A stretch of 64,000 nt of DNA from the IMG/VR virus record IMGVR_UViG_3300035191_000065; one strand, written 5' to 3'. Of this stretch, positions 3,270 to 17,701 are shown in pieces. The notes beneath the pieces are model-generated. The model worked only from the letters and a program-made list of their open reading frames with translations, was not told where the DNA came from and made no database searches. The stretch comes from an uncultured virus (IMG/VR IMGVR_UViG_3300035191_000065) (Duplodnaviria > Heunggongvirae > Uroviricota > Caudoviricetes). Numbering within the stretch: position 1 is the stretch's first letter; each line of letters starts with the position of its first letter. The translations under genes were made by a program, and so were the position numbers.

Positions 3270-3286
3270 AAACGTCGGAGGAAACG

Positions 3287-4177
3287 ATGAGCGAGTGGGA
3301 TGCTCTTGATGAAGACATGACAAGCTACGGAGCAAACGGAAATGGAAACGATGACGATGTTGAATACGTCGGCACCGTCGAAGAAGATGTGAGTGCTGCT
3401 CCGCATGTTCAGGCACCCCGCCGCCCCGTTCGCCGCGTTGTGCCTCAGCGGCCGAGGTTTCAACAGGCTGCGACTCTTGGTGCGGAATCAGCTCCAATTC
3501 GAAGGGGCAATGGAGATAAAGGTGGGCAGATGTACTACTACGACATGGAGAATGGCGCCCGCTTCGCCATGAACGGTGAAGCAGCGCAAAGAGCCGCTGG
3601 TTCTCCAGTGGTGAATGTTGGTGGCCGAGCTGCTCGAAGGGTGCAGCCTGGCACTTACGTCACCTATGGACCTTCGATCGGCCCGAGCGGATTGTATGGC
3701 GGCGGCATGGGCAACGACGGCGACATGGGGATGGGTACCAACGGATCACGAGCTGGCGGAATCATGGAAGGCATCGGCTCTATCCTGGCTCCGCTCTCTG
3801 AGCTGGGAGTCGGTATCGCCACAACGGTCACGGGTCATCAGCGAGCGGAGGCCGAGATGGAGCTGGAAGCTCAGCTTCGTCGCGAGCAAATGGAAGCTGA
3901 GTCTGAGGCTCGTGACATGGCGTTCCAGACCGAGCAGCTCGCCCGTCAGCAGGAGCATGAGCTTCGTCTTGAGGAGCTGTCGCAGCGTGCAGAAGAGCTT
4001 CGGGCTCTTCGTGAGACGGAAGCTGCTGTGTCGTCTGCGCCGTCAACGACAGCGGCTCCGATCGTCACTCAGCAGGGTACCTCACCGGTCGTTTGGATTT
4101 TTCTCGCGCTCGTTCTCGCAGGCGGCGTCGGTGGCGTGTTCTGGTACATGTCCAAGAAGAAAGACGAAGAGGAGTAG
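3287..4177 (+). CDS. Membrane-anchored putative virion protein (GMG motif, coiled coil, C-terminal TM)
   Basis: GGAGG RBS; internal GMGTNG; C-terminal hydrophobic helix followed by KKKDEEE. Confidence 0.75.
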   Translation: MSEWDALDEDMTSYGANGNGNDDDVEYVGTVEEDVSAAPHVQAPRRPVRRVVPQRPRFQQAATLGAESAPIRRGNGDKGGQMYYYDMENGARFAMNGEAAQRAAGSPVVNVGGRAARRVQPGTYVTYGPSIGPSGLYGGGMGNDGDMGMGTNGSRAGGIMEGIGSILAPLSELGVGIATTVTGHQRAEAEMELEAQLRREQMEAESEARDMAFQTEQLARQQEHELRLEELSQRAEELRALRETEAAVSSAPSTTAAPIVTQQGTSPVVWIFLALVLAGGVGGVFWYMSKKKDEEE

Positions 4178-4186
4178 GCGGCTTCG

Positions 4187-4678
4187 ATGAGCTTCGTCTT
4201 CGTAGGTGCCCCTGATGGGGGCGATGTCGGCATGGGAACGACGGCCGGAGACTACGCCAGTGCAGCCGCTGGCGCTGTTGGAAGTACGGTCGGTGCGATC
4301 TTTGGTGCGATCAACACCATCGACCAGATTCGTTACCAGCAGGGTGCCTACGCTGAGGGGCGCGAATCCGGAATGTCGTCGATGCTCGACGACATGGCAA
4401 GGCAACAGTATTTCGATGAAAGAGCGAACGCTGAGCGTGATGCTATCAACGAGGCTCGTAGAGGCATCGCGAGTGAGTATTCCGCACAGGAGCGGGAACT
4501 TGCTGAAGAGATCAGCCGTGAACAAGCGGCTGCGTTCGCTCGCGAGGCTCAAGCCCGCGTCGGTGGAACATTTGGAGGGAGTCGGCCTACTCCCATGTGG
4601 GTCTGGGCTGTCGTTGGAGTCGGAGTGACAGGGGTTGTCATCGGCGGCGTGTGGCTCGTCTCCAAGATGAAGGATTAA
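4187..4678 (+). CDS. Membrane-anchored putative virion protein
   Basis: N-terminal GMGT motif, helical middle, C-terminal TM. Confidence 0.75.
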   Translation: MSFVFVGAPDGGDVGMGTTAGDYASAAAGAVGSTVGAIFGAINTIDQIRYQQGAYAEGRESGMSSMLDDMARQQYFDERANAERDAINEARRGIASEYSAQERELAEEISREQAAAFAREAQARVGGTFGGSRPTPMWVWAVVGVGVTGVVIGGVWLVSKMKD

Positions 4679-4686
4679 GGTAAACG

Positions 4687-5316
4687 ATGTCCTATCATTA
4701 CTACGGTCCTGGCTTGGGTTCTCTCGGATTTTCGGACCCAAGAGGAGCTTGTACGCAGGGCTCTGTGACGGGTCAGAAACGTTGTTTCAGGCCGAGAGAG
4801 GCATCCACCGCCAGTCGAATGAGCTGTGTTGAGATACCCAGTGACACTGGTCAGGTCGGAAGGCTGAACGAGGCGTGTCAGCATTACTGCTGTCCATCCA
4901 CTCCTACTCTTATCCTCGGCGAAGCTGTCAGAGAAGAAGAAGAGTCGACCGTAGCGGCTCAGCCAGGGGCTGCCCCATCTCAGGATACAGGGGGTATCGT
5001 CGATTGGGTCAAGGGAGCCATTGGTATGCCTACAGGTCAACAGGTTCCAGCGGCCCCTATGCCAGGTGGCACAGGCGCAAACAAGCCCACTGCCCAGGGC
5101 TTTGCGACGTATGCACAGGAAGCGGCTCTTCGTACAGGCGCAGCCGCCGAGAACGAGGTTCTCCCTATTGAGGAGACTCCTCCGGACTCTGCCGGCCAGC
5201 AAGCTGCCGAAGAACAGACCTGGATAGAGCGATACCAGACCCATATCACACTGGCCTCGACGGCGATCGGCCTCGGAACCTTCCTTGTTTGGCTGGTCAT
5301 AAGGAAGAAAGACTAG
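4687..5316 (+). CDS. GLG-leader protein with Cys-rich CCP module and C-terminal TM
   Basis: MSYHYYGPGLGSLG leader; six Cys ending in HYCCPS; TM then RKKD. Confidence 0.75.
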   Translation: MSYHYYGPGLGSLGFSDPRGACTQGSVTGQKRCFRPREASTASRMSCVEIPSDTGQVGRLNEACQHYCCPSTPTLILGEAVREEEESTVAAQPGAAPSQDTGGIVDWVKGAIGMPTGQQVPAAPMPGGTGANKPTAQGFATYAQEAALRTGAAAENEVLPIEETPPDSAGQQAAEEQTWIERYQTHITLASTAIGLGTFLVWLVIRKKD

Positions 5317-5324
5317 GTAGAATC

Positions 5325-5987
5325 ATGACTTACGAATATATGACCGGGATGGGGACCGTCGAGGAGGCGGAAAGACTCTCTGCGCAGGCACGCACCGCTT
5401 ACGATTCAGGGAACTACTCAGAAGCAATTCGTCTTCTGGAACAAGCGGAGCGCGAAGACCCGGCAACTCCTCAGAACTACGCTCTACGTCGAGCACAGGC
5501 TCTTGCTCGTGCGAATCGATGTGATGAGGCGCGTCGCGTTCTCGATGGATTTCGTTCTCGATTTTCCAGCGACCCAGCTTTTTCACAATATGAGCGCTTG
5601 GTAGGGGCTTCGTGCCCTACTACTGGTGCTCCGGCAACAGCAGCAGGTGAACCGGCCCCAACAGCAGAAAAGCAGACGTGGTGGCCTACCGACGTCGGTG
5701 CGATGTTTGAGACGGTCGCAACGAAACTTGGTATCGGGGGTCAGGCAAATCAAGAGGCACAGGGCGTTGCCATGGAAACCGCGGCCAACCTCACAGGTCA
5801 GGTGATGGTTCCCGGCGCGGGTGCTGCAGCAGCCACGGAAACCCTTCCTCCTCCTGGTCCTTCGCCCGCTGCTGTAACAGCTCCTATGCCTTCTGTCGGG
5901 TCAACGATCGCTCCTTACATCGTCGGAGGGCTGCTTGTCTTCGGTTTCGCTGGTGTCGGTATTTGGTTGCTCGTGAGGAAAAAGTAG
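5325..5987 (+). CDS. GMG-leader protein with TPR-like repeats and C-terminal TM
   Basis: Start reassigned to MTYEYMTGMG; AYDSGNYSEAIRLLEQA is TPR-like; Ala/Pro/Thr linker; TM then RKK. Confidence 0.75.
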   Translation: MTYEYMTGMGTVEEAERLSAQARTAYDSGNYSEAIRLLEQAEREDPATPQNYALRRAQALARANRCDEARRVLDGFRSRFSSDPAFSQYERLVGASCPTTGAPATAAGEPAPTAEKQTWWPTDVGAMFETVATKLGIGGQANQEAQGVAMETAANLTGQVMVPGAGAAAATETLPPPGPSPAAVTAPMPSVGSTIAPYIVGGLLVFGFAGVGIWLLVRKK

Positions 5988-6521
5988 ATGTCTTACGAGT
6001 ATATGACTGGCCTGGGGACGAACGGCGACATCGATAACCCAGACATGGATTTCGCGACGCCAGAGGATCTGGTGTCCGCTGGAATGGGTCTTCGTCCGAT
6101 GCCGCCAGAGCTTCAGGGTGGTAGGGAGTCTTCGGGCGATACAAGCATCTACTCGGGGATCGCTAATCTGTTCTCCGGGCTCGCTCAGCAGTTTGCGAGC
6201 AATACGGCGACTGAGGTTACGGGGTCTTCAACTGGAGCGCCCGGTGGAAAGCAGCCAAGCGGCGCAACGCCGACTGGGGCAGCTCCAGCGCCCAGCGGAA
6301 AGGGCGCTCCAACGACGACAACTCCTGCACCAGCTCAGTCAACGACAGCTTCAGCGGATGAGGGAGAGGCGGCGTCAGAAGAAACGCCTTCTCCAACATC
6401 GACTGCGGCTCCCCTCGTGGTTCAGCCACAGAGGTCATATGTCCCCTACATCGTGATAGGGGGCTTGGTGCTGACGTTCGGGATCGTTGGCATTTGGCTG
6501 CTGACTCGGAAAAAGGATTAG
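5988..6521 (+). CDS. GLG-leader protein with Ser/Thr/Pro/Ala-rich stalk and C-terminal TM
   Basis: MSYEYMTGLGTNG leader; TM is similar to that of the preceding gene (PYIV.GGL). Confidence 0.75.
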   Translation: MSYEYMTGLGTNGDIDNPDMDFATPEDLVSAGMGLRPMPPELQGGRESSGDTSIYSGIANLFSGLAQQFASNTATEVTGSSTGAPGGKQPSGATPTGAAPAPSGKGAPTTTTPAPAQSTTASADEGEAASEETPSPTSTAAPLVVQPQRSYVPYIVIGGLVLTFGIVGIWLLTRKKD

Positions 6522-6529
6522 AGGGAACA

Positions 6530-6997
6530 ATGGCACCACCAAAGAGCATCGTAAAAGCTCCGCCCCGTGAGGAAAGGTACCGCCAGCGCCTTGGATTCAA
6601 GGGCGTCAATGTCATCAACGGTGCCGCGCCGACTGGCCGACTCCCGAAGGTGATCGGAAGCGGAATCTTCGGCTACGAGGGCGAAGACAACGGGATCTTC
6701 AGCGGCGACACTGAACCGCCGAGCAACACTGGCATTTTCTTCGATGACTATGCTCGATATGACTACGAGGTTGCTGCACCGGACATGCAGTGGAATATGC
6801 TCAGACGTCCGGGTCGTCCGCTCTATCCGGGGTCGTCCTCCTACGGCATCGTCCTGGAGGGGCCGAGCATGGGCACCACGGAGGCGCCTGCTCAGCAGGG
6901 AACAACGTTCGGCGCCAAGCTCTTCTGGCTGGGTGCGGGGGCGGCTGCAGCTCTTGGTATTCAGATGCTCATCAAGAAGTATCGAGAAGAAGAGTAG
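6530..6997 (+). CDS. Membrane-anchored protein with three GIF motifs
   Basis: ATG after GAGGG; GSGIFG, NGIFSG, TGIFFD; SMGT; C-terminal TM then KKYREEE. Confidence 0.7.
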   Translation: MAPPKSIVKAPPREERYRQRLGFKGVNVINGAAPTGRLPKVIGSGIFGYEGEDNGIFSGDTEPPSNTGIFFDDYARYDYEVAAPDMQWNMLRRPGRPLYPGSSSYGIVLEGPSMGTTEAPAQQGTTFGAKLFWLGAGAAAALGIQMLIKKYREEE

Positions 6998-7006
6998 GAG
7001 CAGCCG

Positions 7007-7378
7007 ATGGCATCGAAGCTTGCACGAAAACCAGTCAGCGTCCCGATGTATTTTGTCAGGCCGCACGTGAAGCCTGGCGATTACTACCTGCTCATCAACC
7101 CAGTTTCTGGTAGGCGGATGTGGGTCTACCCGAGGCACATGGGTGAGCGTCAGTATGCTGTGACCTCGGCGCTCGGGACTGATGGGGGTACTGAGTCCTC
7201 AGGGCTCAACGTCAGCGAGTGGATGAGCTGGCTTCAGCAGCGGCCTCAGGAGCTGGTGCAGGAGGCTCAGGAAACGCGAGCCGAGCTGGAACGTGCACAG
7301 CGCCTCATGAAGATCGCCATAGGTGCGAGCATTGTGACGTCGGTCTTGGCGATAACAGTTTTTCTGACGAAGGATTGA
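7007..7378 (+). CDS. Small membrane-anchored protein
   Basis: AGGAG RBS; ALGT motif; C-terminal TM. Confidence 0.7.
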   Translation: MASKLARKPVSVPMYFVRPHVKPGDYYLLINPVSGRRMWVYPRHMGERQYAVTSALGTDGGTESSGLNVSEWMSWLQQRPQELVQEAQETRAELERAQRLMKIAIGASIVTSVLAITVFLTKD

Positions 7379-7380
7379 TC

Positions 7381-7647
7381 ATGTCGAACAACTTCCAACA
7401 GACGGCGGAGAACATCGACCAGATCACTGACTTCATCGTGGCACAGGCCATGGAAACTGCATCACAGGTCCAGCAAGGGGCGCAGCAGATTCAGGCTCAG
7501 AGCCAGGCGATCCCTTCTCAGCCACCTGTGCAAGCAACGACGAATGTATCAGGCCCATTTACGTCGTCGGGTCTGTTCTGGTTTGGCCTCGGCGCGGTGG
7601 CTGCGCTGGGCCTTTCTTACTACCTCACGAAGAGAAGAGGAGAGTGA
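7381..7647 (+). CDS. Small Gln-rich membrane-anchored protein
   Basis: Start reassigned to MSNNFQQ; TM LFWFGLGAVAALG resembles that of the 6530 gene. Confidence 0.7.
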   Translation: MSNNFQQTAENIDQITDFIVAQAMETASQVQQGAQQIQAQSQAIPSQPPVQATTNVSGPFTSSGLFWFGLGAVAALGLSYYLTKRRGE

Positions 7648-7651
7648 AACC

Positions 7652-8515
7652 ATGTACGAGTACGTAAGAAGGCCGGGCGGTTTGGGCGCTTCGAAGAACA
7701 GCCACGAATACGTTCCCGTCCCGGGCGGTTTGGGCTGGATGCCCACCTTTACCTCATTTGGTCAGACATTCCGTGGCCCTTCGTGTCAAACGCCGGATGG
7801 CTCAGGGACCGTGACCTGTGGTCGAACAGCAGAAAGCACCTTCATGGCCAATGAAGGCTGCAGGCCCATGAACCTCGACACCGAACTGGGCGGTTCCACT
7901 CGAATTTGCTTCACGGGTACAGGTCCAACGACGGAGGCAAACGCTGGCTTGGTCTGGTGTTGTCCTCCTGGTCGCCCCCGTGCAACGCCGGGTGAGGGCG
8001 CGGCTGTGACTCAGGCTGGAGCGTCCCGTGCTGACATTCGTGAGCTTCAGCAGTGGCTGGAGTCCATCAACTGTTCTGTCGGCACACACGGCATCGATGG
8101 AATCTGGGGTCCTGATACAGCGACGGCCGTTCGGTGTGCTGAGGCTCAGGGGAACGCGACTGTGATCGCTGCGAACTTCCCCTTCGTCGCCACGATGAGG
8201 CAGACTCCAACCGGACAGGCGCGTCCTGCAGACTTCGTTTTTCAGCCTCCTGTTGTGGGAACAAAGACACCGGAGCAGGTTGCTGCGGGCCAGACCATCA
8301 TCCCTGGTGGTCGTGTGGCAAGCACTGGAACCACACCGGGGACAACACCGGTCACTCAGGCCGGAATGGTCGCGGGTGGCATGCCTTGGTGGGGCTGGAT
8401 GGGCCTGCTCGGAGGCGTCGGCGCTCTCGCGCTGGGTGGTCTTTACCTTTACCGAAAGGGAGAGGAAGAAGACGTGCTGCGTGAAGAGTCTGAGCTGGCC
8501 GCGCTCGGATACTAA
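7652..8515 (+). CDS. GLG-leader protein: CCPP module, peptidoglycan-binding (PG_binding_1-like) domain, TM
   Basis: MYEYVRRPGGLG; VWCCPPG; IRELQQWL...GIDGIWGPDTATAV; TM and acidic tail. Confidence 0.8.
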   Translation: MYEYVRRPGGLGASKNSHEYVPVPGGLGWMPTFTSFGQTFRGPSCQTPDGSGTVTCGRTAESTFMANEGCRPMNLDTELGGSTRICFTGTGPTTEANAGLVWCCPPGRPRATPGEGAAVTQAGASRADIRELQQWLESINCSVGTHGIDGIWGPDTATAVRCAEAQGNATVIAANFPFVATMRQTPTGQARPADFVFQPPVVGTKTPEQVAAGQTIIPGGRVASTGTTPGTTPVTQAGMVAGGMPWWGWMGLLGGVGALALGGLYLYRKGEEEDVLREESELAALGY

Positions 8516-8537
8516 GGGCAAAGAGTAGGAGCTAAAA

Positions 8538-9335
8538 ATGTACGAATATGTAAGGAAGCCCGGTGGTTTGGGCATGGGAGCGCTCGGGTGGTCGTACAAC
8601 TGGGAAATCCCGATGAGTCGGGAAATCGCTCGGAGCATCCCTTGTGAGGGAGGTGGCACGATTGCCTGTGCTACTACCGGCGAACAGGGCTTCATGGTGA
8701 GCCAGGGGTGCCAGGTCACGTATCCTGAGCAGGGAGGTGGCACCGGGGCTTGCCGAACATCATCGGGAGCTTCTGGAAACACCTGGTGCTGTCCGCCAGG
8801 GCGCCCTGGTGCCGGAGAGCCCAGCACGATCGTCCAGCAGGCAGTGAGCCGTGATCAGATTCGTCAGATGCAGAACTGGCTTGTCCAGCAAGGCTGTTCT
8901 GTCGGCTCAACGGGTGCTGATGGTGTCTGGGGGCCGAACACGCGCAGTGGTGTCGAATGCGCAGTGGGCCAGACGAGCTGGACCAACGTGGCCGGGCGCT
9001 TCCCGTTCCTCAGCACACTGATGGCCGATCCTTCCGGAGCGGCTCGTCCATCCGGAATGATCTTTGACCCCGGTGCGACCGGGTCGAAGACCCCTGAACA
9101 GGGCGGCGTTCGCTATGCAAGCGGAGGAGCTGCAGCAACCACCACGACAGGCGCCCCGGGTGCTCCTGCTATTCAGCAGGCTGGCATCGTTCCTGGCGGA
9201 ATGCCTTGGTGGGGCTGGCTCGCCATTCTCGGAGGCGTTGGTCTTCTCGCAGCCGGCGGATACTACCTCTACAAGAGGGGCGAGGAAGAAGAAGCCGAGC
9301 TGGAAGAGGCTGAGCTGGCCGCGCTCGGATATTAG
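8538..9335 (+). CDS. Paralog of the preceding gene (CCPP, PG-binding, TM)
   Basis: MYEYVRKPGGLG; TWCCPPG; GADGVWGPNT; same ELAALGY C-terminus. Confidence 0.8.
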   Translation: MYEYVRKPGGLGMGALGWSYNWEIPMSREIARSIPCEGGGTIACATTGEQGFMVSQGCQVTYPEQGGGTGACRTSSGASGNTWCCPPGRPGAGEPSTIVQQAVSRDQIRQMQNWLVQQGCSVGSTGADGVWGPNTRSGVECAVGQTSWTNVAGRFPFLSTLMADPSGAARPSGMIFDPGATGSKTPEQGGVRYASGGAAATTTTGAPGAPAIQQAGIVPGGMPWWGWLAILGGVGLLAAGGYYLYKRGEEEEAELEEAELAALGY

Positions 9336-9344
9336 GAGGTCGTC

Positions 9345-9764
9345 ATGTACGAGTACACCACCAGAAGTCGTCGGGGCATGATGGGCCTGGGAACAGAGCC
9401 TGAGGAGCAGGTTGGTTCCATTCAGAGTGCCATACTCGAAAACGGCTGTTCTCTTCCGCGGTTTGGCCGCGACAGCCGATGGGGCTCAGAGACCGAGGCG
9501 GGTACTCGTTGTCTCGCGGAGCGCCGCGGTTGGGATTTCGTTCTCCAGAGCTGGCCCTGGGTCGCTCAGAGGATGACAATTCCCCAACAACAGGGAGTGG
9601 CGCAGCAGGTCGCCTCTGTCGTTCCCCGAGTCACAGGAAACGGTCAGACTCCAGCATGGCTTCCATGGGCCGCTGCCGGTGTCGGTCTCGTCGGCATCAT
9701 CATGATCGGCTCCTATGTCACAGCAAAAATGGAAGAGGAGCGAGAAAGAAGAGGTCAATTCTGA
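9345..9764 (+). CDS. GLG-leader protein: PG-binding-like domain and TM
   Basis: MYEYTTR...GLGT; IQSAILENGCSLPRFGRDSRWGSET; AGGAGG RBS. Confidence 0.75.
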   Translation: MYEYTTRSRRGMMGLGTEPEEQVGSIQSAILENGCSLPRFGRDSRWGSETEAGTRCLAERRGWDFVLQSWPWVAQRMTIPQQQGVAQQVASVVPRVTGNGQTPAWLPWAAAGVGLVGIIMIGSYVTAKMEEERERRGQF

Positions 9765-10246
9765 TGTATACAAGAGCCCGTCAAGGCCTTGGCTGGACCG
9801 GTGGTTTTACCGTTCCAGGTCAGGAACATCGTTTCTCTCAGCAAACGTGCTCAGGTCCAGCCGCGAACCCAATGGACCCGAGCAGTGACCTCATCTGTGG
9901 TCGCTCCGCCGAGATTCAATACTTGCAGCGCATCGGATGTAGAACAGTTGGCTTCCAAGGAAACCACCACTGCTATACCGATGAGGGTAACCAGGGAGTT
10001 TTCTACTGCTGCCCGCCTGGAGTCCTCGACGCTGAGCTGGCCCGAGCAGCAGCGATTCCTGCACCCAGAGATGGACAGCAGGTGGCGGCGTCCATGATCC
10101 CTGCTGCTGCAACCGCAGCGGGCGCCGGTATCGGCATGGGCATCGGAACCGTCCTAGTGACGGTGGGTGTCATGGGTATCGGTGGATATCTCGTCTGGCG
10201 ATGGGCGAAGAATCGCCAGGAGGAGATGGAGCTGGAGGGATACTGA
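9764..10246 (+). CDS. GLG-leader protein: CCPP module and TM
   Basis: TGATG-coupled start MYTRARQGLGW; FYCCPPG; TM and acidic tail. Confidence 0.75.
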   Translation: MYTRARQGLGWTGGFTVPGQEHRFSQQTCSGPAANPMDPSSDLICGRSAEIQYLQRIGCRTVGFQGNHHCYTDEGNQGVFYCCPPGVLDAELARAAAIPAPRDGQQVAASMIPAAATAAGAGIGMGIGTVLVTVGVMGIGGYLVWRWAKNRQEEMELEGY

Positions 10247-10584
10247 TGTACATCTACACGACGAAGGGTCGACAGCTCTCTCCTCTGAGCACCCTCGTTC
10301 CCTACAATCCTGCTCGACCTCTCCTTCCTCAGGGAATGGGAACGAACGGAGACCAGGTCACGCAGACGGCGTCTATGGTGACGGATCAGGCGACTCGGTT
10401 CAATTTTTGGGTAAAGGTCGCTCTTGCGATGGCGGTTGGTGCCGTCGGCTTTGCTCTTTACAACAAGCTTAGAAGTGAGCCGATGTACCCGAATATGCTG
10501 GCCCCATGGCCGGCGATTGGGCCGACGTTCGCCTATGCGGACGGTATTGGTAGAGCGTTCTCGCTCGTTCCCTTCGTTGTGTGA
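10246..10584 (+). CDS. Small GMG-motif membrane protein
   Basis: TGATG-coupled start MYIYTT; GMGTNG; one TM. Confidence 0.7.
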   Translation: MYIYTTKGRQLSPLSTLVPYNPARPLLPQGMGTNGDQVTQTASMVTDQATRFNFWVKVALAMAVGAVGFALYNKLRSEPMYPNMLAPWPAIGPTFAYADGIGRAFSLVPFVV

Positions 10585-10592
10585 GGTGTGAC

Positions 10593-11276
10593 ATGTATAT
10601 GCGGACAAGAACACGTCGGCCTTTGATGAGCCTTGGGGCACTCGGTTCCAATGGGGCATGGAGCTGGATCGGCCAATCATGCCGTGGAAGTGCCGACTTC
10701 CCGATGGCTGATGGCGAGGTCGCCTGCGTTCCTTCCGGGCAGGAGGGTCGAGCAGACAGTCGGGCTTGTGTTGGAGTGCAGGTTGGTGGTGAGCCCTATT
10801 GCGCTCAGCCAGACGCCACAGACGCTGGTGCGTACTACTGCTGCCCTCGACGTGACAAGGTGCGCGAGCTTCAGATGGCTATTCTTCGAGCAGGCTGTAG
10901 GCTGCCGACCTACGGCGCAGATGGTCTCTTCGGGTCCGAAACGCGTTCCGGGATCAACTGTTTGGCGCAGGCTGTCGGATGGGGAAGTATCGTTGGGCGA
11001 TATCCTGTTGTGCTTTCTTTGGTGGAGGTGCCGGAGGAATTTCGTCCACGGCCTGTAGCGGCAGCAGCGCCAGTCGCAACGCAACCCTCGCAGCCGATTC
11101 AGCCTACACCGGCCCGTTCTGAGTGGAACGCAACTTGGACCATTTTGGCAGTGGGTGTTGGTGGTATCGGTCTTTTCATCTTGATGCAGTACCTGATGAG
11201 CGGCCGAGGTGTCGGCGACGTGGACATTGAAGAGAGAGAGGCACGCTGGGTCGAGGCACCGACAGGCGCCTATTAA
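10593..11276 (+). CDS. Leader protein: CCP module, PG-binding domain, TM
   Basis: MYMR...SLGALGSNG; YYCCPR; VRELQMAIL...GADGLFGSET. Confidence 0.75.
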   Translation: MYMRTRTRRPLMSLGALGSNGAWSWIGQSCRGSADFPMADGEVACVPSGQEGRADSRACVGVQVGGEPYCAQPDATDAGAYYCCPRRDKVRELQMAILRAGCRLPTYGADGLFGSETRSGINCLAQAVGWGSIVGRYPVVLSLVEVPEEFRPRPVAAAAPVATQPSQPIQPTPARSEWNATWTILAVGVGGIGLFILMQYLMSGRGVGDVDIEEREARWVEAPTGAY

Positions 11277-11294
11277 AGAGGTTAAACATTTAAA

Positions 11295-12227
11295 ATGTAC
11301 GAATACCGAAGAACACCTGGTGGGCTTGGCGCTTTGGGCACAAACGGCGAAGGCCGTGATGGAGCCGATCTCCTTCGCGACGTTCAGACAGGTGTTCTCT
11401 CTCGGGGACAAGCCAGAGACGTCTGTTTTAACCTCGCCCCTGACAGGATCGGCACTGACTTTACGGAATGTCGACGACTATTTACGGCAGCAGAGGCGTG
11501 TCGAGTAGATTCAGGCGGCGCCCCATGCAGCAATTTTGAAGTTGCAACATATTGCAACGTGATGAGTCCTCCTAATATCCCCGGTGACTGTGATTACTAC
11601 TTGACCTTTGCAGAAGCTCTGAGCCCTGAAGAAATGAATCGACTTCCGGCGCCCACGGCCGAAGAAATCGTAGAGGCAGAGGGTCTTCTGACGAGATTTG
11701 CGGAGAATGTTGCTGCCGCTGGAAGAAGGATTGCTCGCACTGTTTTGCCGCCCGACCCTCAGGTAGAGGCAGTGCAGAACGCAGTCATTGCTGCTGGATG
11801 TACTCTCCCCCGCTATGGGGTCGATGGTCGATGGGGCGATGAGACCGAGGCCGGCGTCCGATGCCTTGCTGCTCGCCAGAGCTGGCAACAGGTCGTTCAG
11901 CAGTTCCCGACTGTCGCTCAGAGGATGACCGTTCCATCCGGCCCTCCTCCCGTTACGACTACACCAACGACGTTCCCGACGGGTGTCGCTACCGTAGTGA
12001 AGCCATCGTTTTCTCCGCTACCTGTGCCTCCCAGCGTCGCGCAGCAACCGCCGCGAGTTCAAACCGCGTCGATGGGGCCTTCGATTCCGACAACCGGACT
12101 TCCATCCTGGGTCCCGTGGGCTGCTGCAGGCTTTGGTCTTCTGGGGATCATCGTCCTTGGTGCCTACATGACTCGAAAGAAGGAAGAAGAGTTCGAGTTC
12201 GAGGAGGAGCGCTATGGGCGGTTTTAG
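11295..12227 (+). CDS. GLG-leader protein: Cys-rich domain, PG-binding domain, Pro/Thr stalk, TM
   Basis: MYEYRRTPGGLGALGTNG; GVDGRWGDET; TM similar to that of the 9345 gene. Confidence 0.8.
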   Translation: MYEYRRTPGGLGALGTNGEGRDGADLLRDVQTGVLSRGQARDVCFNLAPDRIGTDFTECRRLFTAAEACRVDSGGAPCSNFEVATYCNVMSPPNIPGDCDYYLTFAEALSPEEMNRLPAPTAEEIVEAEGLLTRFAENVAAAGRRIARTVLPPDPQVEAVQNAVIAAGCTLPRYGVDGRWGDETEAGVRCLAARQSWQQVVQQFPTVAQRMTVPSGPPPVTTTPTTFPTGVATVVKPSFSPLPVPPSVAQQPPRVQTASMGPSIPTTGLPSWVPWAAAGFGLLGIIVLGAYMTRKKEEEFEFEEERYGRF

Positions 12228-12651
12228 GCAGATGTACGGCCTCGGTTGGTCGGACGTCGTCGGTCATCCGATGTGTCCTGACTATCCGGGCTACGAGCAG
12301 CGCTGTTTTCGAACGACGACCGTTGATGGTCAGCCGCCCGAGCAAGATTTCGCTCGTGCTCAGGGGTGCGCTCCGATCAATCAGCCTTGCAGCACCTCAC
12401 CGGCTGGAAACCCGGGTCTCGTCTGGTGCTGTCCTCCTGGTTGGCCGCGTCCACCGGGGTCGCCTCCTCTGGAACCGGGTCAGACGCCGCCTGCGCCGCC
12501 TGCGCCACCGGGTATCGGTCGATGGTTTCAGCAGTCATCGAGCCGGTGGTGGTTCTGGCTTGGAGCACTTGGTCTCGCTGGCATCGCCTTTTTTGGCTAC
12601 AAGGAGTACGAGGCGAAGCGAGAAGAGCTGGAACTCGAAGAGGAGTTCTGA
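12214..12651 (+). CDS. GLG-leader protein: CCPP module and TM
   Basis: MYGLGW (alternative start 12232); VWCCPPG; acidic tail. Confidence 0.75.
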   Translation: MGGFRQMYGLGWSDVVGHPMCPDYPGYEQRCFRTTTVDGQPPEQDFARAQGCAPINQPCSTSPAGNPGLVWCCPPGWPRPPGSPPLEPGQTPPAPPAPPGIGRWFQQSSSRWWFWLGALGLAGIAFFGYKEYEAKREELELEEEF

Positions 12652-12654
12652 TCC

Positions 12655-13107
12655 ATGTACGAATACAACCCCAGAGGGATGGGCTGGTCGCAGGTCAATG
12701 AACCTCCAACGTTCGGTCAGATCTTCAGCGGAGAGAGGACACAGAAGCAGTGCTTGGAGTTTCCAGGGGGGAATCAATACTGTTTCGTGGAGCCGGATGA
12801 ATACCAGTTCGCTTATGACAGAGCTTGTGAGCGAATTGGGTGGCCTTGCAACACCGCGGAGAATAATGCTGGTGCCGTCTGGTGCTGTCCTCCTGGATTC
12901 CCAGACTTCCCAGTGCAGCCCGCCGAGCCAGCTCCGGTAGAGCCAGAACCGCAACCGCAGCCTCAGCCAGTGCCTACTTCTCCTCAGCCTCCAGCTTTGC
13001 CGCAGGTGGCATCTGCCTCGATGTTTGGTCCGGTCGTGGCGTTGTTGGCTCTCGGGGTCGGCGGCTGGTTTGGGTATCGGTATTTGAAGAGAGAGGGGCA
13101 CATCTGA
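12655..13107 (+). CDS. GMG-leader protein: CCPP module, PQ stalk, TM
   Basis: MYEYNPRGMGW; VWCCPPG. Confidence 0.75.
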   Translation: MYEYNPRGMGWSQVNEPPTFGQIFSGERTQKQCLEFPGGNQYCFVEPDEYQFAYDRACERIGWPCNTAENNAGAVWCCPPGFPDFPVQPAEPAPVEPEPQPQPQPVPTSPQPPALPQVASASMFGPVVALLALGVGGWFGYRYLKREGHI

Positions 13108-13760
13108 TGTACGAGTACAACAGAAGACCTGGCGGTCTCGGTGCTCTCGGCTGGTCTGTGATGAGCAGTTGGGATTTGGCCCCGCTCTTTGGTCGTCCTC
13201 AGTGTATGTGTACGACGGATGACGTAGGAAGACAGTATCCTCCGGACGAAGTTTGCTTCATGGAGGATCCACAGAACGCTGGTGAAGTTTATCCTCCAGA
13301 CCTCAACGTCGCCAACCTCTACGGCTGCGTTCAGAATATGCAGACGTTTCTCACCGGAGATGAGCCGAAGCGCTGTGAGACTGCTTCTGGTAACCCCGGT
13401 TTTTGCTTTTGCTGCCCGAGTGGAACACCGCGGGCCGATCCCGAGACTCCGGAGGCCGCTCAGATTCGTGAGGAGGAGGCACAGCTCCCTTTGCCGCCCG
13501 AGATTCCCGGTCTTCCGACGGTGGAACCTCCTACGACTACGCAGCCGCCTGTTCAGTCTCCGACGAAAGAGCTTCCTCCTGAAGGATCGACACCGACAGC
13601 GAGGATCACGACGACGCCGATCACTGGCATCGGAAAGATTCTGTCCGATCCAAAGGTTTGGGTTGCTGTAGGCATCCTGGGGACGGCGGCTTATCTCGGC
13701 AAGCGCTACTTCGACCGGAAGCGAGAAGAGCGCATGCTGTTCTCAGAGGAGATGGGCTGA
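13107..13760 (+). CDS. GLG-leader protein: CCP module, Pro/Thr stalk, TM
   Basis: TGATG-coupled start MYEYNRRPGGLGALGW; CFCCPSG. Confidence 0.75.
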   Translation: MYEYNRRPGGLGALGWSVMSSWDLAPLFGRPQCMCTTDDVGRQYPPDEVCFMEDPQNAGEVYPPDLNVANLYGCVQNMQTFLTGDEPKRCETASGNPGFCFCCPSGTPRADPETPEAAQIREEEAQLPLPPEIPGLPTVEPPTTTQPPVQSPTKELPPEGSTPTARITTTPITGIGKILSDPKVWVAVGILGTAAYLGKRYFDRKREERMLFSEEMG

Positions 13761-14434
13761 TGTACGAGTACTCGACAGGGCTCGGGCTCGTCGGCCCCGG
13801 CTGGACGGATATTTCTGGTAACCCCCCCTGCTCAGAAGTTGTTGGAGGGGGTGTCACTCGATGCTTCGAGAATACGGCAGATGCAGGGGCGTGTGCTCGT
13901 GAGGGGGGATGCGTTCCTTCTGCCAGAGGGCAGACGTGTTCGGTTGAGGGAGTGGCTGGTTCGACGTGGTGCTGTCCACCCCACTGGCCTCGTCCTTTCC
14001 TGGCATGTCCTACTCAGGCTGGTGGGCGGATAGAGCCTTCGGTAGCGACGTGTCAGTCCCATCGCGTCGACAGGAACAGCCTGACGACGTCTCGTTCACG
14101 GGTCATTTGGGATATTCAATCGCGTCTTTGCTCAATGGGTATTGATCCGGGTCCGATTGATGGTGTTGGGGAAGCAACGTCATTCGCAGCGGCTATTCGG
14201 GCATCCCAAGCGCGCGGTGGTATTCCGCAGACAGGGACCCCGGATCAAGCGACTCTCTTTCGGATGGGGTTCTCTGCGGCTGATGCTCAGAGGATGGCCG
14301 GAACTCTTGTACCGGCCGGACCAGGAGGTGGATTCGATCTTGGCATTCAGCTCCCATGGGCTCTTGTGATTGGGACCTCTGCAGCGGCCATGTTCATGCT
14401 TTACGCCGCATGGAAGTTCAAGAAGAGGTCGTGA
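13760..14434 (+). CDS. GLG-leader protein: CCPP module, PG-binding domain, TM
   Basis: TGATG-coupled start MYEYSTGLG; TWCCPPH; IQSRLCSMGIDPGPIDG...AIRASQARGGIPQTG. Confidence 0.78.
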   Translation: MYEYSTGLGLVGPGWTDISGNPPCSEVVGGGVTRCFENTADAGACAREGGCVPSARGQTCSVEGVAGSTWCCPPHWPRPFLACPTQAGGRIEPSVATCQSHRVDRNSLTTSRSRVIWDIQSRLCSMGIDPGPIDGVGEATSFAAAIRASQARGGIPQTGTPDQATLFRMGFSAADAQRMAGTLVPAGPGGGFDLGIQLPWALVIGTSAAAMFMLYAAWKFKKRS

Positions 14435-14706
14435 TGGAGCGAAACTTCGGACCAATTGCTGCTGCTGCCTATCCGATCCTCATCGGTGGTTCGTTGATTT
14501 TTGCCGGTATGGCCTTTGGTGCGTTTCAACAGAACGGAACGACGGAAGTTCAGGACCAGCAGCAGCAGATTGAGGAGCAGCGACGACGTGCAGCGGCGGC
14601 TCAGTCGCAAGCAATGTACGGGCTGCTCGTTCCGATGGGGATGATCGCAATCCCAGCGACAGCCATCCTGGGGATGTATTTTATCCTAAGGAAGAGAGAG
14701 CGATAG
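14434..14706 (+). CDS. Small two-TM protein
   Basis: Coupled start MERNFG; two hydrophobic helices around a Q/R-rich coil. Confidence 0.7.
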   Translation: MERNFGPIAAAAYPILIGGSLIFAGMAFGAFQQNGTTEVQDQQQQIEEQRRRAAAAQSQAMYGLLVPMGMIAIPATAILGMYFILRKRER

Positions 14707-15003
14707 ATGCAGCCAAATCCATGGTGGGTCCCTGCTCTGTTGTATGGCGTTCCGTTGGTTGTTGGTACGGGATGGGCTGGCTATGCCATATCGCGTTCAG
14801 TGTCCGAGGGAGAGAGGGAGAGGCTGGAGCAACAGAGGCAACAGGCTATTCGACAAGAAGAGCAAGCCCGTGTTGCGCAATTGCAGACGCAAATGATGAT
14901 CGAGCAGATGCGCCCATGGATGTGGGCATCTGTTCCGGCGATGGTGCTCATTGGGGCGTACCTCTTGCACAAGTCTAAGCAGGAGGAGGTGGAGGAGCTG
15001 TGA
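14707..15003 (+). CDS. Small two-TM protein, same architecture as the preceding gene
   Basis: MQPNPWW; TM, Q/E/R coil, TM, acidic tail. Confidence 0.7.
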   Translation: MQPNPWWVPALLYGVPLVVGTGWAGYAISRSVSEGERERLEQQRQQAIRQEEQARVAQLQTQMMIEQMRPWMWASVPAMVLIGAYLLHKSKQEEVEEL

Positions 15004-15404
15004 GGCCCGGAGTTAATTACGGCGCGATCGCGACCAATGGAATGTACAGCGTTTGGGATTGGACGACCGGGAAGTACAAATACTATCAGGCTCCAGAGCC
15101 TGATCGTCCCAAGTACGGTGAGGAAGTCCCGCCGCCGCCTTTTTCGCCAGCGCTCGGAAGCGCTCTCGGCGAAGCCCCAGATACCTCGGGCCACAGTCTT
15201 CCACCAAGGGCGAAGTATGTTGGAACAGGCTCTCTCGCAATGGGTGAAATTGTTTCCGAGGTGAGCACCCAGACACCGATCAATCCATGGCTGTGCGTTG
15301 GGTTAGCGATCGTCGTTCCGACGGCACTTCTCTGGCTGACAACCAGACTTGATAATCGTCCTCAGGACGAAAGATTCGGTACCTTCGAGTCGGAGATGGA
15401 GTAG
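15000..15404 (+). CDS. Membrane-anchored protein
   Basis: GTG start overlapping the previous stop; ALGSALG; C-terminal TM. Confidence 0.7.
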   Translation: MRPGVNYGAIATNGMYSVWDWTTGKYKYYQAPEPDRPKYGEEVPPPPFSPALGSALGEAPDTSGHSLPPRAKYVGTGSLAMGEIVSEVSTQTPINPWLCVGLAIVVPTALLWLTTRLDNRPQDERFGTFESEME

Positions 15405-15406
15405 AC

Positions 15407-16159
15407 ATGGCTCGCAGTAGGCGGCGCGTCCAAGTGCGCGATATTCTCAATGACCCGATCGAACGACGCGAACTGATGATCAGGACGATCATCGCAACGC
15501 AGGCTCGTGAGGGGATCACCGTCACTCGCGAGCGAGCTGAAGAGGTCTATGACAAGATTCAGCGAGAGCTGCGTCATCAGCGTCCGAACCCAGGTTCGCC
15601 CATCGAGCGAAACGACGCAAGGTCGGCGCAGGCTGCAGCGAAAACGTTCAAGCGCTTTCACTCGCGCAAGAAACTTGAACCGGTCTTCCCTTTTCACGGG
15701 CAGGAGCACTCGGTATTCGAGCTGGAAGGTGTTGACTGGCCTGAGCAGGTGAGCTTACTCGGTGTCGCAATGCGAACGCTCTATGAGAGTGACAAATGGC
15801 ACCAGCGCGGTGAGACCGTCGAGTACTACCACGATCACGATCGAAACGTTGTGAAGTTCATGGTTCCTTCAGATGAGGGAGGCGCACTCGAACCAGTGCA
15901 GCTTCCTTACGGTTGGCCAGAAGAGGTGATGCTCATCGGAGAGTGTATTGGATTCGTCGTTCGGCCCCTGGATACTGGAGAGATCACCGAGGGTACGATG
16001 AAGGGAAAGAACGTTTTGGTCGCGTCACCTGACGGGTGGGTTGATCCGCGGCGACCGAACCGAGTTTTCTTGGCGATCATCAACCTGGACGGAGGAGGAG
16101 TCGAGAGTGTCATAGACGGCCCCAACCTCCGCATCACCTCACATGGGATCGAGGGGTGA
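15407..16159 (+). CDS. Soluble hypothetical protein with two regions joined at RPNP
   Basis: 250-aa ORF with GGAG RBS; basic helical N-terminal part and a beta-rich C-terminal part. Confidence 0.75.
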   Translation: MARSRRRVQVRDILNDPIERRELMIRTIIATQAREGITVTRERAEEVYDKIQRELRHQRPNPGSPIERNDARSAQAAAKTFKRFHSRKKLEPVFPFHGQEHSVFELEGVDWPEQVSLLGVAMRTLYESDKWHQRGETVEYYHDHDRNVVKFMVPSDEGGALEPVQLPYGWPEEVMLIGECIGFVVRPLDTGEITEGTMKGKNVLVASPDGWVDPRRPNRVFLAIINLDGGGVESVIDGPNLRITSHGIEG

Positions 16160-16160
16160 T

Positions 16161-16502
16161 ATGAGCTACGAGTACACAACAAAAAGCTCGATGGGTGGCG
16201 CTGCTGGTGGTCAGTCTGGTGGGAGTGTCACTCTTCGTGTAGCACCGTGCGGGCAGCGTGCTCCAAACCGGGAGCTTCAGGCCGAGCTGGACGAGTGGTA
16301 TCCGGGGATTATGCCTCGTGTTGTAGGTCGTCTCGATATCAACTGTTACGTGGGCTCGACACAAAGCTATCGATTCTCTTACGCCACAAGTCCTCATAAG
16401 GCATACCGCGTTAGGATCATTGGGCACCTGCGCGACATAAAACAGGTGGAGAACTTCAAGGGCGGCACCCACAAGGTGTTTGACGTCGTTCAAAAGTCAT
16501 AA
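16161..16502 (+). CDS. YEY-leader soluble protein
   Basis: Start reassigned to MSYEYTTKSSMGG; no TM. Confidence 0.7.
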   Translation: MSYEYTTKSSMGGAAGGQSGGSVTLRVAPCGQRAPNRELQAELDEWYPGIMPRVVGRLDINCYVGSTQSYRFSYATSPHKAYRVRIIGHLRDIKQVENFKGGTHKVFDVVQKS

Positions 16503-16514
16503 AGGAGATTGGCG

Positions 16515-16868
16515 ATGCTGGGATATTGGGAAGAAGCTGTTGGGATGGGGCAACCGGAGACCTCGATGGGGAACTTCGGACTTGTCCTGGCGCAGTTCGC
16601 GCTCGGCGGAGCTGCTGCTGCCATCGTTTCTCCAATGGACCGCAAGTACGCCGTCATTGAGGGCGGCGTCGCTGCTGTTGCGCTGGCACAAGCCGCTCAG
16701 GCGATTGTTCCGATGAGTGGGGTCCTGTTCTGGTTGCGAACGTTTGCTATTCCATCTGGTGCAGGTGCGGTCGTCGGGATTTGGCAACAGAAGCAATGGG
16801 AGCGAGAGCTGAGGGCAAGCTACGAGCTGGATCGAGCGCAGCGTCTTGCTTCTCGCGCAAGGGCGTAG
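16515..16868 (+). CDS. GMG-motif multi-TM protein
   Basis: MLGYWEEAVGMG; hydrophobic Gly/Ala-rich helices. Confidence 0.7.
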   Translation: MLGYWEEAVGMGQPETSMGNFGLVLAQFALGGAAAAIVSPMDRKYAVIEGGVAAVALAQAAQAIVPMSGVLFWLRTFAIPSGAGAVVGIWQQKQWERELRASYELDRAQRLASRARA

Positions 16869-16877
16869 GAGGGGACG

Positions 16878-17381
16878 ATGTACGAGTACACTCCAGCGAC
16901 TTACGAGTCGATGATGGGATTCGGACTTGGTACAAATGGCAACGGCGCTGAGCCGGTGGCAGTTACCGTTCCTGGTTTGCAGCTCGAAGATCAGGCTTTT
17001 GTTGATACGGGCGTTCCAGCTCCTGCAGACAACGGAACGAGGGCTCTTGCCATCGGAGCTGGCGTCGGGGCACTCGCTCTTCTCCTGCTTGGGATCGTCG
17101 TGATTGGAATTGCCATGCCGTTCGCGCTCGGAGCTGCTGGTGCAGCGATTACCGGAGCGAAGGGATACAAGAAGGAGGCGGCGAAGAAGGGTGCCATCTA
17201 CGGCGGTCTTGCTGGTATTGGCGCGGGCATCGTGCTGACCATCGTCTCTGCTGGCCTCGAAAGTGTGAGTCAGGGCAGCGGTCGTTACGTTGGAGGCTCT
17301 GGTCTCGTTCCTTTCGCTGTCGGACTCTACATCGGCTACAAGCAGAAAGAACGTTTGCGTGAAGAAGGCGCAATCGATTAA
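16878..17381 (+). CDS. GLG-leader multi-TM protein
   Basis: MYEYTP...GFGLGTNG; 3-4 hydrophobic helices; GGAGG RBS. Confidence 0.75.
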   Translation: MYEYTPATYESMMGFGLGTNGNGAEPVAVTVPGLQLEDQAFVDTGVPAPADNGTRALAIGAGVGALALLLLGIVVIGIAMPFALGAAGAAITGAKGYKKEAAKKGAIYGGLAGIGAGIVLTIVSAGLESVSQGSGRYVGGSGLVPFAVGLYIGYKQKERLREEGAID

Positions 17382-17391
17382 GGAGGAGAGC

Positions 17392-17601
17392 ATGTCTTAC
17401 GAGTATCAGAGGGTGCAGGGTGGGCTAGGTGCAGCAGCACCTACTCGTGTGAGAACACATGCCCCCGTGCCGCCCGCTAGAGCTGTTTCGCTTTGTGCAT
17501 CATACGAAGAAGAATTGCGTTTGCGAGAACATGAGTTGCATTTGGCGACGCTGGAGCATCGAGCAGCACAGTTGCGCCTGCAGCGCTGCCGTCAGGGATA
17601 G
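17392..17601 (+). CDS. GLG-leader small coiled-coil peptide
   Basis: AGGAGG RBS then MSYEYQRVQGGLG. Confidence 0.7.
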   Translation: MSYEYQRVQGGLGAAAPTRVRTHAPVPPARAVSLCASYEEELRLREHELHLATLEHRAAQLRLQRCRQG

Positions 17602-17701
17602 AGTCAGATAAAAGCTCGCGCTCGTCTCTCCGATTTTCTGAGTTCCTGCCTACTTAAGGGTTCTTTTTAAAGAAAAAACGTCTTGAAGACGTTAAATACG
17701 C

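Follow-up and report, generated by a model that had tools for sequence, protein, structure and literature searches.

What does a short N-terminal sequence do when it is carried by many proteins of a single virus, several of them otherwise unrelated to each other? The question is raised by a 64,000-nucleotide (nt) stretch of DNA from an uncultured virus (IMG/VR record IMGVR_UViG_3300035191_000065), hereafter the window, in which positions 2,634-22,176 form one unidirectional late block. This block consists of an enzyme gene (2634; genes are named by their first nucleotide), ~27 small genes, a gene for a soluble protein (15407), a gene for a 1171-amino-acid (aa) protein, and a gene for a 215-aa protein (21529); nearly all of the small genes encode proteins that end in one membrane helix followed by Lys or Arg, often with an acidic tail. 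Many of these proteins start with M(S/T)YEY or MYEY and soon reach G(L/M)G, a leader that we call the tag and that the initial annotation of this DNA had read as a virus-specific sorting, assembly, or cleavage signal. Our analysis gives about an even chance to the reading that the tag is a label for incorporation into a particle or membrane, probably trimmed at G-L/M-G by the enzyme that gene 2634 encodes.

A six-frame scan of the window found exact M[ST]?YEY starts at 5325, 5988, 7652, 8538, 9345, 11295, 12655, 13107, 13760, 16161, 16878, 17392, and 44399 (n = 13), i.e., precisely the genes that had been listed; all are on the plus strand, and each heads an open frame of 69 to 310 aa. G[LMF]G follows YEY within 12 residues in 11 of the 13, the exceptions being the two leaders already described as deviating (16161 and 44399), and the variant leaders at 4187, 4687, 9764, 10246, 10593, 12232, 16515, 30196, and 30570 also read as reported. 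The nearest record, a virus contig of 182,770 bases (G001), contains 99% of the window's words; the window corresponds to its minus strand and extends ~1.9 kb beyond its end. On the window's strand, G001 has no M[ST]?YEY besides these 13, which account for 13 of the 14 YEY triplets in the three plus frames, and its opposite strand has a single hit, namely an unrelated Cys-rich open reading frame (ORF). Given the composition of the 243 predicted G001 proteins, 0.03 proteins with YEY within residues 2 to 6 were expected, versus 13 observed, and 200 resamplings of this control gave a mean of 0.035 and a maximum of 1. A Shine-Dalgarno core (GGAG, GAGG, or AGGA) lies 5 to 13 nt upstream of 12 of the 13 tagged genes (background, 20%), and 7 of the 13 have an in-frame stop no more than four codons upstream of the start, indicating that the tagged starts are real. 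Thus, two of the points on which the claim of a leader hinged, its enrichment at N termini over controls and the position of the true starts, held.

The proteins behind the tag had been called otherwise unrelated, a description that stood for 6 of the 13 and failed for the other 7. In BLASTP comparisons of sequences trimmed of leader and anchor, 7652, 8538, 9345, 11295, 12655, 13107, and 13760 clustered with 9764, 10593, and 12232 as one paralogous set, whose common parts are a Cys module (WCCPPG type) and/or a peptidoglycan (PG)-binding-like module. The gathering score of PF01471 (23 bits) is passed by 13760 (24.8 bits), with 7652 (21.1 bits) and 8538 (16.8 bits) below it. Nothing in the set is matched by 5325 (with a TPR domain), 5988, 16161, 16878, 17392, or 44399 (a beta-sandwich). 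The tag is thus carried by at least seven unrelated cores, a distribution that descent of whole genes from a common ancestor cannot account for.

We considered whether the tag might have no common function, being a relic of duplication or a feature of translation initiation, since 7 of the 13 proteins are paralogues and the first Tyr of the tag is encoded by TAC in 34 of 35 tags, compared with 66% TAC genome-wide. Six tagged proteins, however, are unrelated to the others. In our reading, TAC is preferred because TATGAR would place an out-of-frame ATG next to the ribosome-binding site; the bias would then explain itself without a functionless tag and would be a further argument that the tag ATGs are used. 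The other codons vary (Glu, GAG 8 and GAA 5; second Tyr, TAC 9 and TAT 4; Gly codons variable), so that the constraint acts on the protein, and the DNA upstream of tagged genes is not conserved; together, these two observations ruled out an RNA-level or promoter reading of the motif. Furthermore, the tag is invariant where the remainder of the protein has diverged to ~40% identity, and M-S-Y persists in the wider clade described below, its Ser being drawn from both codon boxes (AGC/AGT 41, TCG/TCC 10). We disfavor the functionless reading and regard it as very improbable.

Conservation of the tag was apparent at several distances. Metagenome orthologues of 8538 (40 to 74% identity) all keep it, and in a 10-sequence alignment of orthologues and paralogues (44 to 79% identity), Y2, E3, Y4, G9, L11, and G17 are invariant. 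In 7 of 8 orthologue sets, conservation is higher in the first 14 residues than in the remainder (e.g., 68% versus 34% for 5325). Five metagenome loci are syntenic with window positions 1-22,000, in which identity reaches 72 to 80% for enzyme 2634, 65 to 70% for 15407, 83 to 92% for 21529, and ~30 to 60% for the membrane proteins; 22 of their ORFs start M..YEY, with 26 YEY triplets in all on the coding strand and none on the opposite strand. Enrichment, together with retention by orthologues and syntenic loci, bears out the existence of the tag and its specificity for this viral lineage, and the sequence comparisons support purifying selection keeping it on at least seven unrelated protein cores. 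A profile search of 1.84 billion representatives returned 366 proteins at E <= 0.001, mostly through the PG-binding-like part; many of those matched by the 8538-family profile are multi-repeat proteins aligned at profile positions ~90-150. The family members that cover the N terminus begin MYEY, MYEF, or MYGY (with four copies of the tag in tandem in P0147), and none of the 21 fetched proteins has a hydrophobic start, as judged by reading. Scans of IMG/VR for 8538 relatives gave one weak locus (L014) without tags, and a DNA pattern scan of IMG/VR (ATG-TAY-GAR-TAY...GGN-GGN-YTN-GG) gave three single matches, which we judged to be due to chance. GenBank phage searches with 8538, 2634, 21529, 15407, P0080, and P0065 yielded no useful match, and a limited, nonexhaustive literature search found no paper on a YEY motif in phage.

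Most tagged proteins had been said to end in a transmembrane segment plus Lys/Arg, and a C-terminal hydrophobic helix followed by such residues is indeed present in 10 of the 13 (absent from 16161, 17392, and 44399). The predicted topology of these 10, and of ~23 of the 30 block proteins listed, is that of tail-anchored proteins, i.e., one C-terminal helix and no N-terminal signal. The absence of a hydrophobic Sec signal was likewise upheld: the best 12-residue Kyte-Doolittle mean within the first 36 residues ranged from -0.11 to 0.98 (n = 13), and the tagged proteins' own C-terminal helices gave 1.2 to 2.45 (17-residue means). Judged by hydropathy, the tag is not a Sec-type signal peptide. 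Other known signals were also considered and rejected. The RR of some leaders (e.g., YEYNRRPGGLG) recalls a Tat signal, but no hydrophobic stretch follows, by reading and hydropathy; pilin-type and sortase-type signals were dismissed by reading, as no hydrophobic stretch follows the Gly and the proteins extend beyond the basic cluster; and for a double-glycine bacteriocin leader, the C39 peptidase model PF03412 had no match in G001 and the Pfam scans showed no ABC transporter. Finally, since an anchor is missing from three tagged proteins and the tag from about a dozen anchored ones, these predictions indicate that the tag cannot be a general membrane-insertion signal, nor can it be required for block membership.

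The same features bear on the possibility that the tag is a nonclassical export signal that takes N-terminal domains across the host membrane by a virus-encoded or other route, leaving the N terminus outside and the C terminus inside. Lys/Arg directly after the helix, rare before it, form the positive-inside pattern expected for an outside N terminus; the cargo includes PG-binding-like domains, and its Cys residues are even in number (6, 8, or 10), none in CxxC spacing; and the block encodes untagged multi-helix proteins (4187, 14434, and 16515). Bacterial tail-anchored proteins, however, likewise end in a helix and basic residues, the distribution of tag and anchor just described does not fit, and Pfam and PHROGs scans revealed no known secretion component. 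To our knowledge, there is no precedent among C-terminally anchored proteins for posttranslational export of folded 100- to 280-aa domains without a hydrophobic signal, and we consider an export function improbable. The initial annotation had argued that Cys-rich and PG-binding domains should face outward, an argument that need not require export. For a protein that lacks an export signal and whose helix lies at the extreme C terminus, the default would be tail anchoring with the N-terminal domain in the cytoplasm. If a viral membrane is then pinched inward into the cell, the cytoplasmic face would become the outer face of the vesicle; PRD1-type phages are said to form their membrane in such a way, and it is on this that the proposed inversion rests. 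Such an inversion would bring the Cys-rich and PG-binding domains into contact with the cell wall no earlier than the next infection and would make a new secretion route unnecessary.

Gene 2634 (2634..3269), which had been singled out as a partner of the tag, heads the block and encodes a transglutaminase-like Cys-His-Asp enzyme, our candidate trimming protease. Against Transglut_core clusters it obtained an Atlas feature score of 0.95 (177 shared features), and 22 of its 76 homologues, including some at 62 to 65% identity, carry a precomputed PF01841 assignment. Its direct match to PF01841 (15.3 bits, E = 0.0024) is under the 23-bit cut-off, and no Pfam hit was obtained at E <= 0.01. All 28 aligned sequences share D111-C112-D113, H171, and D187; the Cys-His-Asp triad (C112, H171, and D187) is intact. 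In 24 of 24 related loci (5 close and 19 distant), this gene is accompanied by tagged genes.

The 19 distant IMG/VR loci were fetched solely by similarity to 2634 (29 to 41% identity; contigs of 34 to 298 kb), and in them we tallied ORFs with an M[STA]Y start and a length of at least 60 aa, noting G[LMF]G within the first 25 residues. Downstream of the enzyme on the same strand (184 kb) there were 65 such ORFs, 30 with G[LMF]G and 42 with a C-terminal helix, compared with 9 upstream on the same strand (173 kb) and 4 on the opposite strand (357 kb), none of which had either feature. At least one downstream M[STA]Y ORF was present in 15 of the 19 loci, typical starts being MSYAGLGQ, MSYHGLGQ, and MSYMRGMGT. 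With the 10-kb flanks covered, profiles also detected 15407-family relatives on the downstream side of the enzyme in 8 of these 19 loci and 21529-family relatives in 2. The M[STA]Y ORFs downstream of the enzyme argue that YEY...GLG is the local dialect of a wider, enzyme-linked tag, M-S/T/A-Y...(G)-L/M-G, that marks a broad clade of large uncultured bacterial viruses.

An enzyme of this fold also invites the reading that the tag is a modification sequon targeted by a viral enzyme, through either glycosylation of Tyr by the glycosyltransferases encoded at 37 to 64 kb or cross-linking by the transglutaminase-like protein. In its favor, true transglutaminases belong to the fold family of the enzyme, glycosyl-, methyl-, and pyruvyl-transferase genes form a long run in the window, and Lys and Gln stand beside GG in many leaders (e.g., YEYNRKQGGLG). 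Several leaders, however, have neither Lys nor Gln (e.g., YEYMTGLG), and no transferase is linked to the tag, the transferase genes being at least 20 kb away. We rate modification as a shade more improbable than export.

The enzyme family also connects the window to a cultured virus. SSIP-1 is described as a tailless, icosahedral, membrane-containing phage of hypersaline origin that has two types of capsid protein (PMC6356626, PMC6260650). The 2634-family profile matched SSIP-1 gp34 at E = 7.7e-20 with the triad kept, and tblastn of gp34 against the distant loci reached E values down to 4e-16. In the SSIP-1 record, gp34 is listed as a virion structural protein, and small C-terminally anchored proteins follow it, several with GMG or GLG in their first 35 residues. 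The likeness thus comprises an enzyme homologue with its triad and the anchored small proteins after it. In contrast, the SSIP-1 genome is 44 kb, versus 183 kb or more here; gp34 has its own C-terminal helix, whereas 2634 has none; and SSIP-1 shows no M-S-Y or YEY starts. The other SSIP-1 late proteins gave no tblastn match, and the jelly-roll, 15407, and 8538 profiles found nothing in SSIP-1. Common capsid proteins and a packaging ATPase, by which SSIP-1-like viruses would be recognized, were not detected, gp34 alone matching, although the sequences may be too distant. As far as these comparisons go, SSIP-1 and the viruses studied here share a module, not family membership.

The last two genes of the block bear on the kind of particle that the tag might serve. 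The 1171-aa protein (17825..21340), 49 to 57% identical in three relatives, has a very basic, repeat-rich N-terminal half (RYRVRKPGGGTYMRRYPTKRRK among its repeats), hydrophobic segments near residues 725-810, and then a further repeat region that holds NG repeats, the acidic, tag-like EYLEVPMSGMG and VEEAYAGMG, and GIF motifs, and that ends in EEEGIF. The two tag-like repeats are letter-perfect in relatives L015, L016, and L019, with varying copy number. From its composition, this protein looks like a membrane-anchored, genome-condensing protein. The 21529 protein (21529..22176), 83 to 92% identical in relatives, is modeled by AlphaFold2 (AF2) as a single jelly roll (predicted local distance difference test [pLDDT], 70.8; predicted template-modeling score [pTM], 0.73) and is a possible capsid protein. 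The top Foldseek rows were mostly viral jelly-roll capsid proteins (best E = 1.6e-3), and a wide structural search (VIA) ranked an SPV1 capsid chain first (Z = 7.6, root mean square deviation 3.5, 127 aligned residues), followed by capsid proteins of HCIV-1, HHIV-2, FLiP, and P23-77; the cement proteins of tailed phages score about equally, and Z values below 8 are weak. A tailless particle with an internal membrane is plausible on this model. PDB sequence searches with 2634, 15407, and 21529 gave nothing significant, and a scan of GTDB genomes with the jelly-roll profile found two weak loci without tags. One search of titles and abstracts on uncultivated jelly-roll phages with an internal membrane returned nothing on this clade. 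A complex prediction combining the jelly roll (A2), the enzyme (A4), and residues 1-40 of the 8538 family scored 0.00, which is uninformative and gives no verdict.

Regarding genome context, relatives of G001 proteins lie on contigs of 252 to 290 kb. At positions 160001-182770 of G001 (L012, L013), 31 tRNA genes are clustered with a tmRNA whose tag peptide ends in LARAA, which indicates a bacterial host; this island also points to a very large genome. G001 further encodes an integrase, SSB, methylases, an M23 peptidase, and nucleotide enzymes, as well as an AAA ATPase with only ~33% identity to mycobacteriophage ATPases. A long series of genes at window positions 37357-63995 encodes glycosyl-, methyl-, and pyruvyl-transferases and related proteins, together with a GDSL lipase, and the virus appears to carry its own glycan-building gene set. 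In oriented G001 50899-68642 (L009-L010), four paralogous large proteins (534 to 1617 aa) start MSNIF(V/I)TDI; two proteins of 476 to 479 aa lie beside them, and one of the four and one neighbor have weak PHROG structural/tail-fiber hits. These MSNIF(V/I)TDI proteins may be spikes or fibers. Two DnaJ-domain proteins are virus encoded (window 28915-29415; L010 15918-16745), a 587-aa protein with a Cas12f1-like TNB (TnpB-type) domain lies at L008 2383-4146, and a tyrosine integrase is found elsewhere (L010 14349-15404).

Taken together, the label to which we gave about an even chance would operate as follows. A viral partner would recognize the aromatic-acidic YEY head and gather the proteins into a membrane patch or a particle under construction; the tag would in this manner select proteins for the particle, the three soluble ones included. 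Its small-hydrophobic-small end (G-L/M-G) would then be the site at which the neighboring enzyme trims it. G-L/M/F-G is present in 29 of 35 YEY-lineage leaders, and MSGMG recurs in the repeats of the 1171-aa protein.

The main rival to a trimmed tag is an uncut docking motif, i.e., a multivalent handle by which the membrane proteins and the basic 1171-aa protein are held to a repetitive partner (a capsid lattice, for example), while the enzyme has another role, such as cell-wall cutting at entry. Consistent with docking, the tag occurs in tandem in 7652 and fourfold in P0147, and as internal EYLEVPMSGMG/VEEAYAGMG repeats of variable copy number in the 1171-aa protein; its YEY and GLGW halves are separable, lying ~30 residues apart in orthologues of 9764; and the related G[LM]GTNG motif, which occurs five times, always in block proteins, is far from the N terminus in two or three cases (3287 and 30196). 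A highly conserved jelly-roll protein also follows the block. On the other hand, docking names no partner, does not explain the strict linkage to an intact Cys-His-Asp enzyme in 24 of 24 loci, and leaves aside that the glycine-flanked end resembles known viral cleavage sites (PMC4246237). We judge docking unlikely.

Several observations weigh against an N-terminal label trimmed by the 2634 enzyme. Tandem and internal copies are not strictly N-terminal and suit a multivalent docking motif better than a propeptide that is cut once. The tag has decayed within some orthologue sets (4687 reads YHY, and 9764 and 10593 are without EY), so that some proteins, at least, can dispense with it, and it is absent from about a dozen anchored block proteins. 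Met at the P4 position, as in the adenovirus-type rule, occurs in only 9 of 29 leaders. Alternatively, the enzyme could act on the cell wall as a peptidase during entry, in which case its linkage to the block would reflect only a common place in the particle. With respect to the particle, the 21529 jelly-roll match holds only at the fold level, with Z below 8, and Pfam, PHROGs, and direct family searches of G001 found no terminase, portal, HK97 capsid, or FtsK-type ATPase; G001 may, however, be a fragment, given that the window overruns its end and that relatives lie on 252- to 290-kb contigs, so these absences prove nothing.

A bolder extension of the trimmed-label reading, which we hold to be doubtful though conceivable, is that the 180- to 300-kb contigs represent a clade of very large, tailless, internal-membrane bacterial viruses that mature in the manner of adenoviruses, poxviruses, and asfarviruses. 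Here, a particle-associated cysteine protease of transglutaminase fold would trim glycine-ended tags from dozens of virion membrane proteins and would cut a membrane-anchored, protamine-like, genome-condensing protein at repeated sites, YEY being the address. If true, this would be the first system of maturation protease and targeting tag known in membrane-containing phages.

The individual genes of the block, all on the plus strand, illustrate how the tag varies. Directly after the enzyme, 3287..4177 encodes an untagged anchored protein with an internal GMGTNG (32 to 39% identity in all five close loci); the untagged multi-helix protein 4187 comes next, and then 4687..5316, with the decayed tag MSYHYYGPGLG and a C-terminal anchor, whose orthologues read MSYEYYGPGLG and MSYEYAMSGLS. 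Two tagged, C-terminally anchored proteins come next, namely 5325..5987 (MTYEYMTGMG; TPR cargo, TPR_19 E = 2.8e-7; tag kept in orthologues) and 5988..6521 (MSYEYMTGLGTNG; low-complexity cargo, no paralogue). The untagged anchored protein at 6530-6997 contains three GIF motifs (GSGIFGYEG, DNGIFSGD, and NTGIFFDD), like the GIF repeats of the 1171-aa protein; from these sequences, GIF would be a second short motif common to block proteins.

The paralogous set begins with 7652..8515, which carries a tandem tag (YEYVRRPGGLG...HEYVPVPGGLGW), and 8538..9335 (MYEYVRKPGGLG; the subject of the 10-sequence alignment); both combine a Cys module, a PG-binding-like domain, a C-terminal anchor, and an acidic tail. 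Tagged protein 9345..9764 (MYEYTTRSRRGMMGLG) has the PG-binding-like domain and the anchor, and 9764..10246 has the decayed tag MYTRARQGLGW, a Cys module, and the anchor; its orthologues start MSNYEY or MYEY, two of them with the ~30 additional residues between YEY and GLGW. The membrane protein 10246..10584 bears the variant MYIY...GMGTNG (GMGTNG at residues 30-35), and 10593..11276, with a Cys module and a PG-binding-like domain, bears the decayed MYMRTRTRRPLMSLGALGSNG, where an orthologue starts MYEYMRTRGGLG. Four further C-terminally anchored members are 11295..12227 (MYEYRRTPGGLGALGTNG; PG-binding-like domain, acidic tail), 12232..12651 (shortened tag MYGLGWS; Cys module, acidic tail), 12655..13107 (MYEYNPRGMGW; Cys module), and 13107..13760 (MYEYNRRPGGLGALGW; Cys module), the anchor of the last being weak. 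The set closes with 13760..14434 (MYEYSTGLG), in which a Cys module, the PG_binding_1 domain that passes the PF01471 cut-off, and a C-terminal anchor are combined. Within 7652-13760, many of the acidic tails end in Gly or another small residue plus a terminal aromatic one (LGY twice, EGY, GAY, GRF, and EEF), and the 1171-aa protein ends in GIF; among orthologues, these C-terminal endings vary (LGI, LGM, AGL, RY, and DW). Such a small-aromatic ending may be a third motif.

Farther downstream, 15407..16159 encodes a conserved soluble protein (65 to 70% identical in L015, L016, and L019) to which no fold could be assigned, its AF2 model from four sequences being unusable (pLDDT, 46). The remaining tagged genes of the block are 16161..16502 (MSYEYTTKSSMGG; soluble, no anchor), 16878..17381 (MYEYTPATYESMMGFGLGTNG; several membrane helices), and 17392..17601 (MSYEYQRVQGGLG; 69 aa, helical C-terminal half, no anchor). 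The outlying tagged gene 44399..45073 on the same strand (MSYEYSPGFAG) carries a beta-sandwich cargo without an anchor, its match to CarbopepD_reg_2 (E = 2e-7, 31.4 bits) being below the 32.2-bit cut-off.

The tag is short and easily recognized; it is conserved in 24 loci that come from different metagenomes and span a wide uncultured clade, and it is tied to one conserved enzyme with a homologue in the cultured phage SSIP-1. It thereby offers a simple sequence signature with which metagenomes can be searched for this clade and its membrane proteome, and it makes three questions testable, i.e., how tail-anchored proteins are selected for a viral membrane, whether bacterial viruses of this build use a maturation protease, and whether a 10- to 20-residue tag can load foreign proteins onto particles.

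Among known systems, three invite comparison. The head protease of phage T4 removes a capsid targeting sequence (CTS) from proteins bound for the head. This CTS, which loads its carriers into the forming particle, is described as the only common part of the diverse, fast-changing set of T4 internal proteins (PMC3012670), and the tag resembles it in being a short N-terminal peptide on otherwise unrelated phage proteins (here, at least seven cores). The two have no sequence likeness, however; T4 cargo is soluble and enters a tailed-phage head via the scaffold core, whereas the cargo here is mostly membrane anchored; Pfam and PHROGs searches found no gp21-type protease or HK97-type head gene, the candidate enzyme being transglutaminase-like; and in the present system, targeting and trimming are predicted.

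The second comparison is with the adenovirus protease, a cysteine protease whose sites are given as (M/I/L)XGG-X or (M/I/L)XGX-G in many particle proteins, including a histone-like core protein (PMC4246237). MTGLG, MTGMG, MMGLG, and MSGMG fit the second site form, and a very basic, core-like protein with repeated sites is present in the form of the 1171-aa protein. The protease clan differs, however: Peptidase_C5 (PF00770, clan CE) had no match at E <= 1 in G001, a possibly incomplete record. Moreover, Met at P4 is confined to the minority of leaders given above, the host here is bacterial, and trimming is predicted.

The third is LapG, a transglutaminase-like C-H-D protease reported to cut off an N-terminal piece of the adhesin LapA between two alanines (PMC3032545). 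The candidate enzyme shares with LapG (and BTLCP) a transglutaminase-like Cys-His-Asp make-up, a putative site at a pair of small residues, and a gene near those of the substrates, which here are putative. PF06035 (Peptidase C93, the LapG family), in contrast, had no match at E <= 1 in G001, the only approach to C93 being one Atlas cluster near 2634 with 26% C93 members. LapG is also periplasmic and regulated by cyclic di-GMP (c-di-GMP), and it cuts LapA ~108 residues in, at Ala-Ala, one substrate versus the dozens proposed here.

In a limited search, the parts of the literature on membrane-containing bacterial viruses that were covered mentioned neither address tags nor glycine-site proteases. 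Each was known before from other settings, address tags from phage T4 and glycine-site maturation proteases from eukaryotic viruses. What is new here is a looser form of the tag (M-S/T/A-Y...G-L/M/F-G) in 19 viral loci that were found only through the neighboring enzyme gene.

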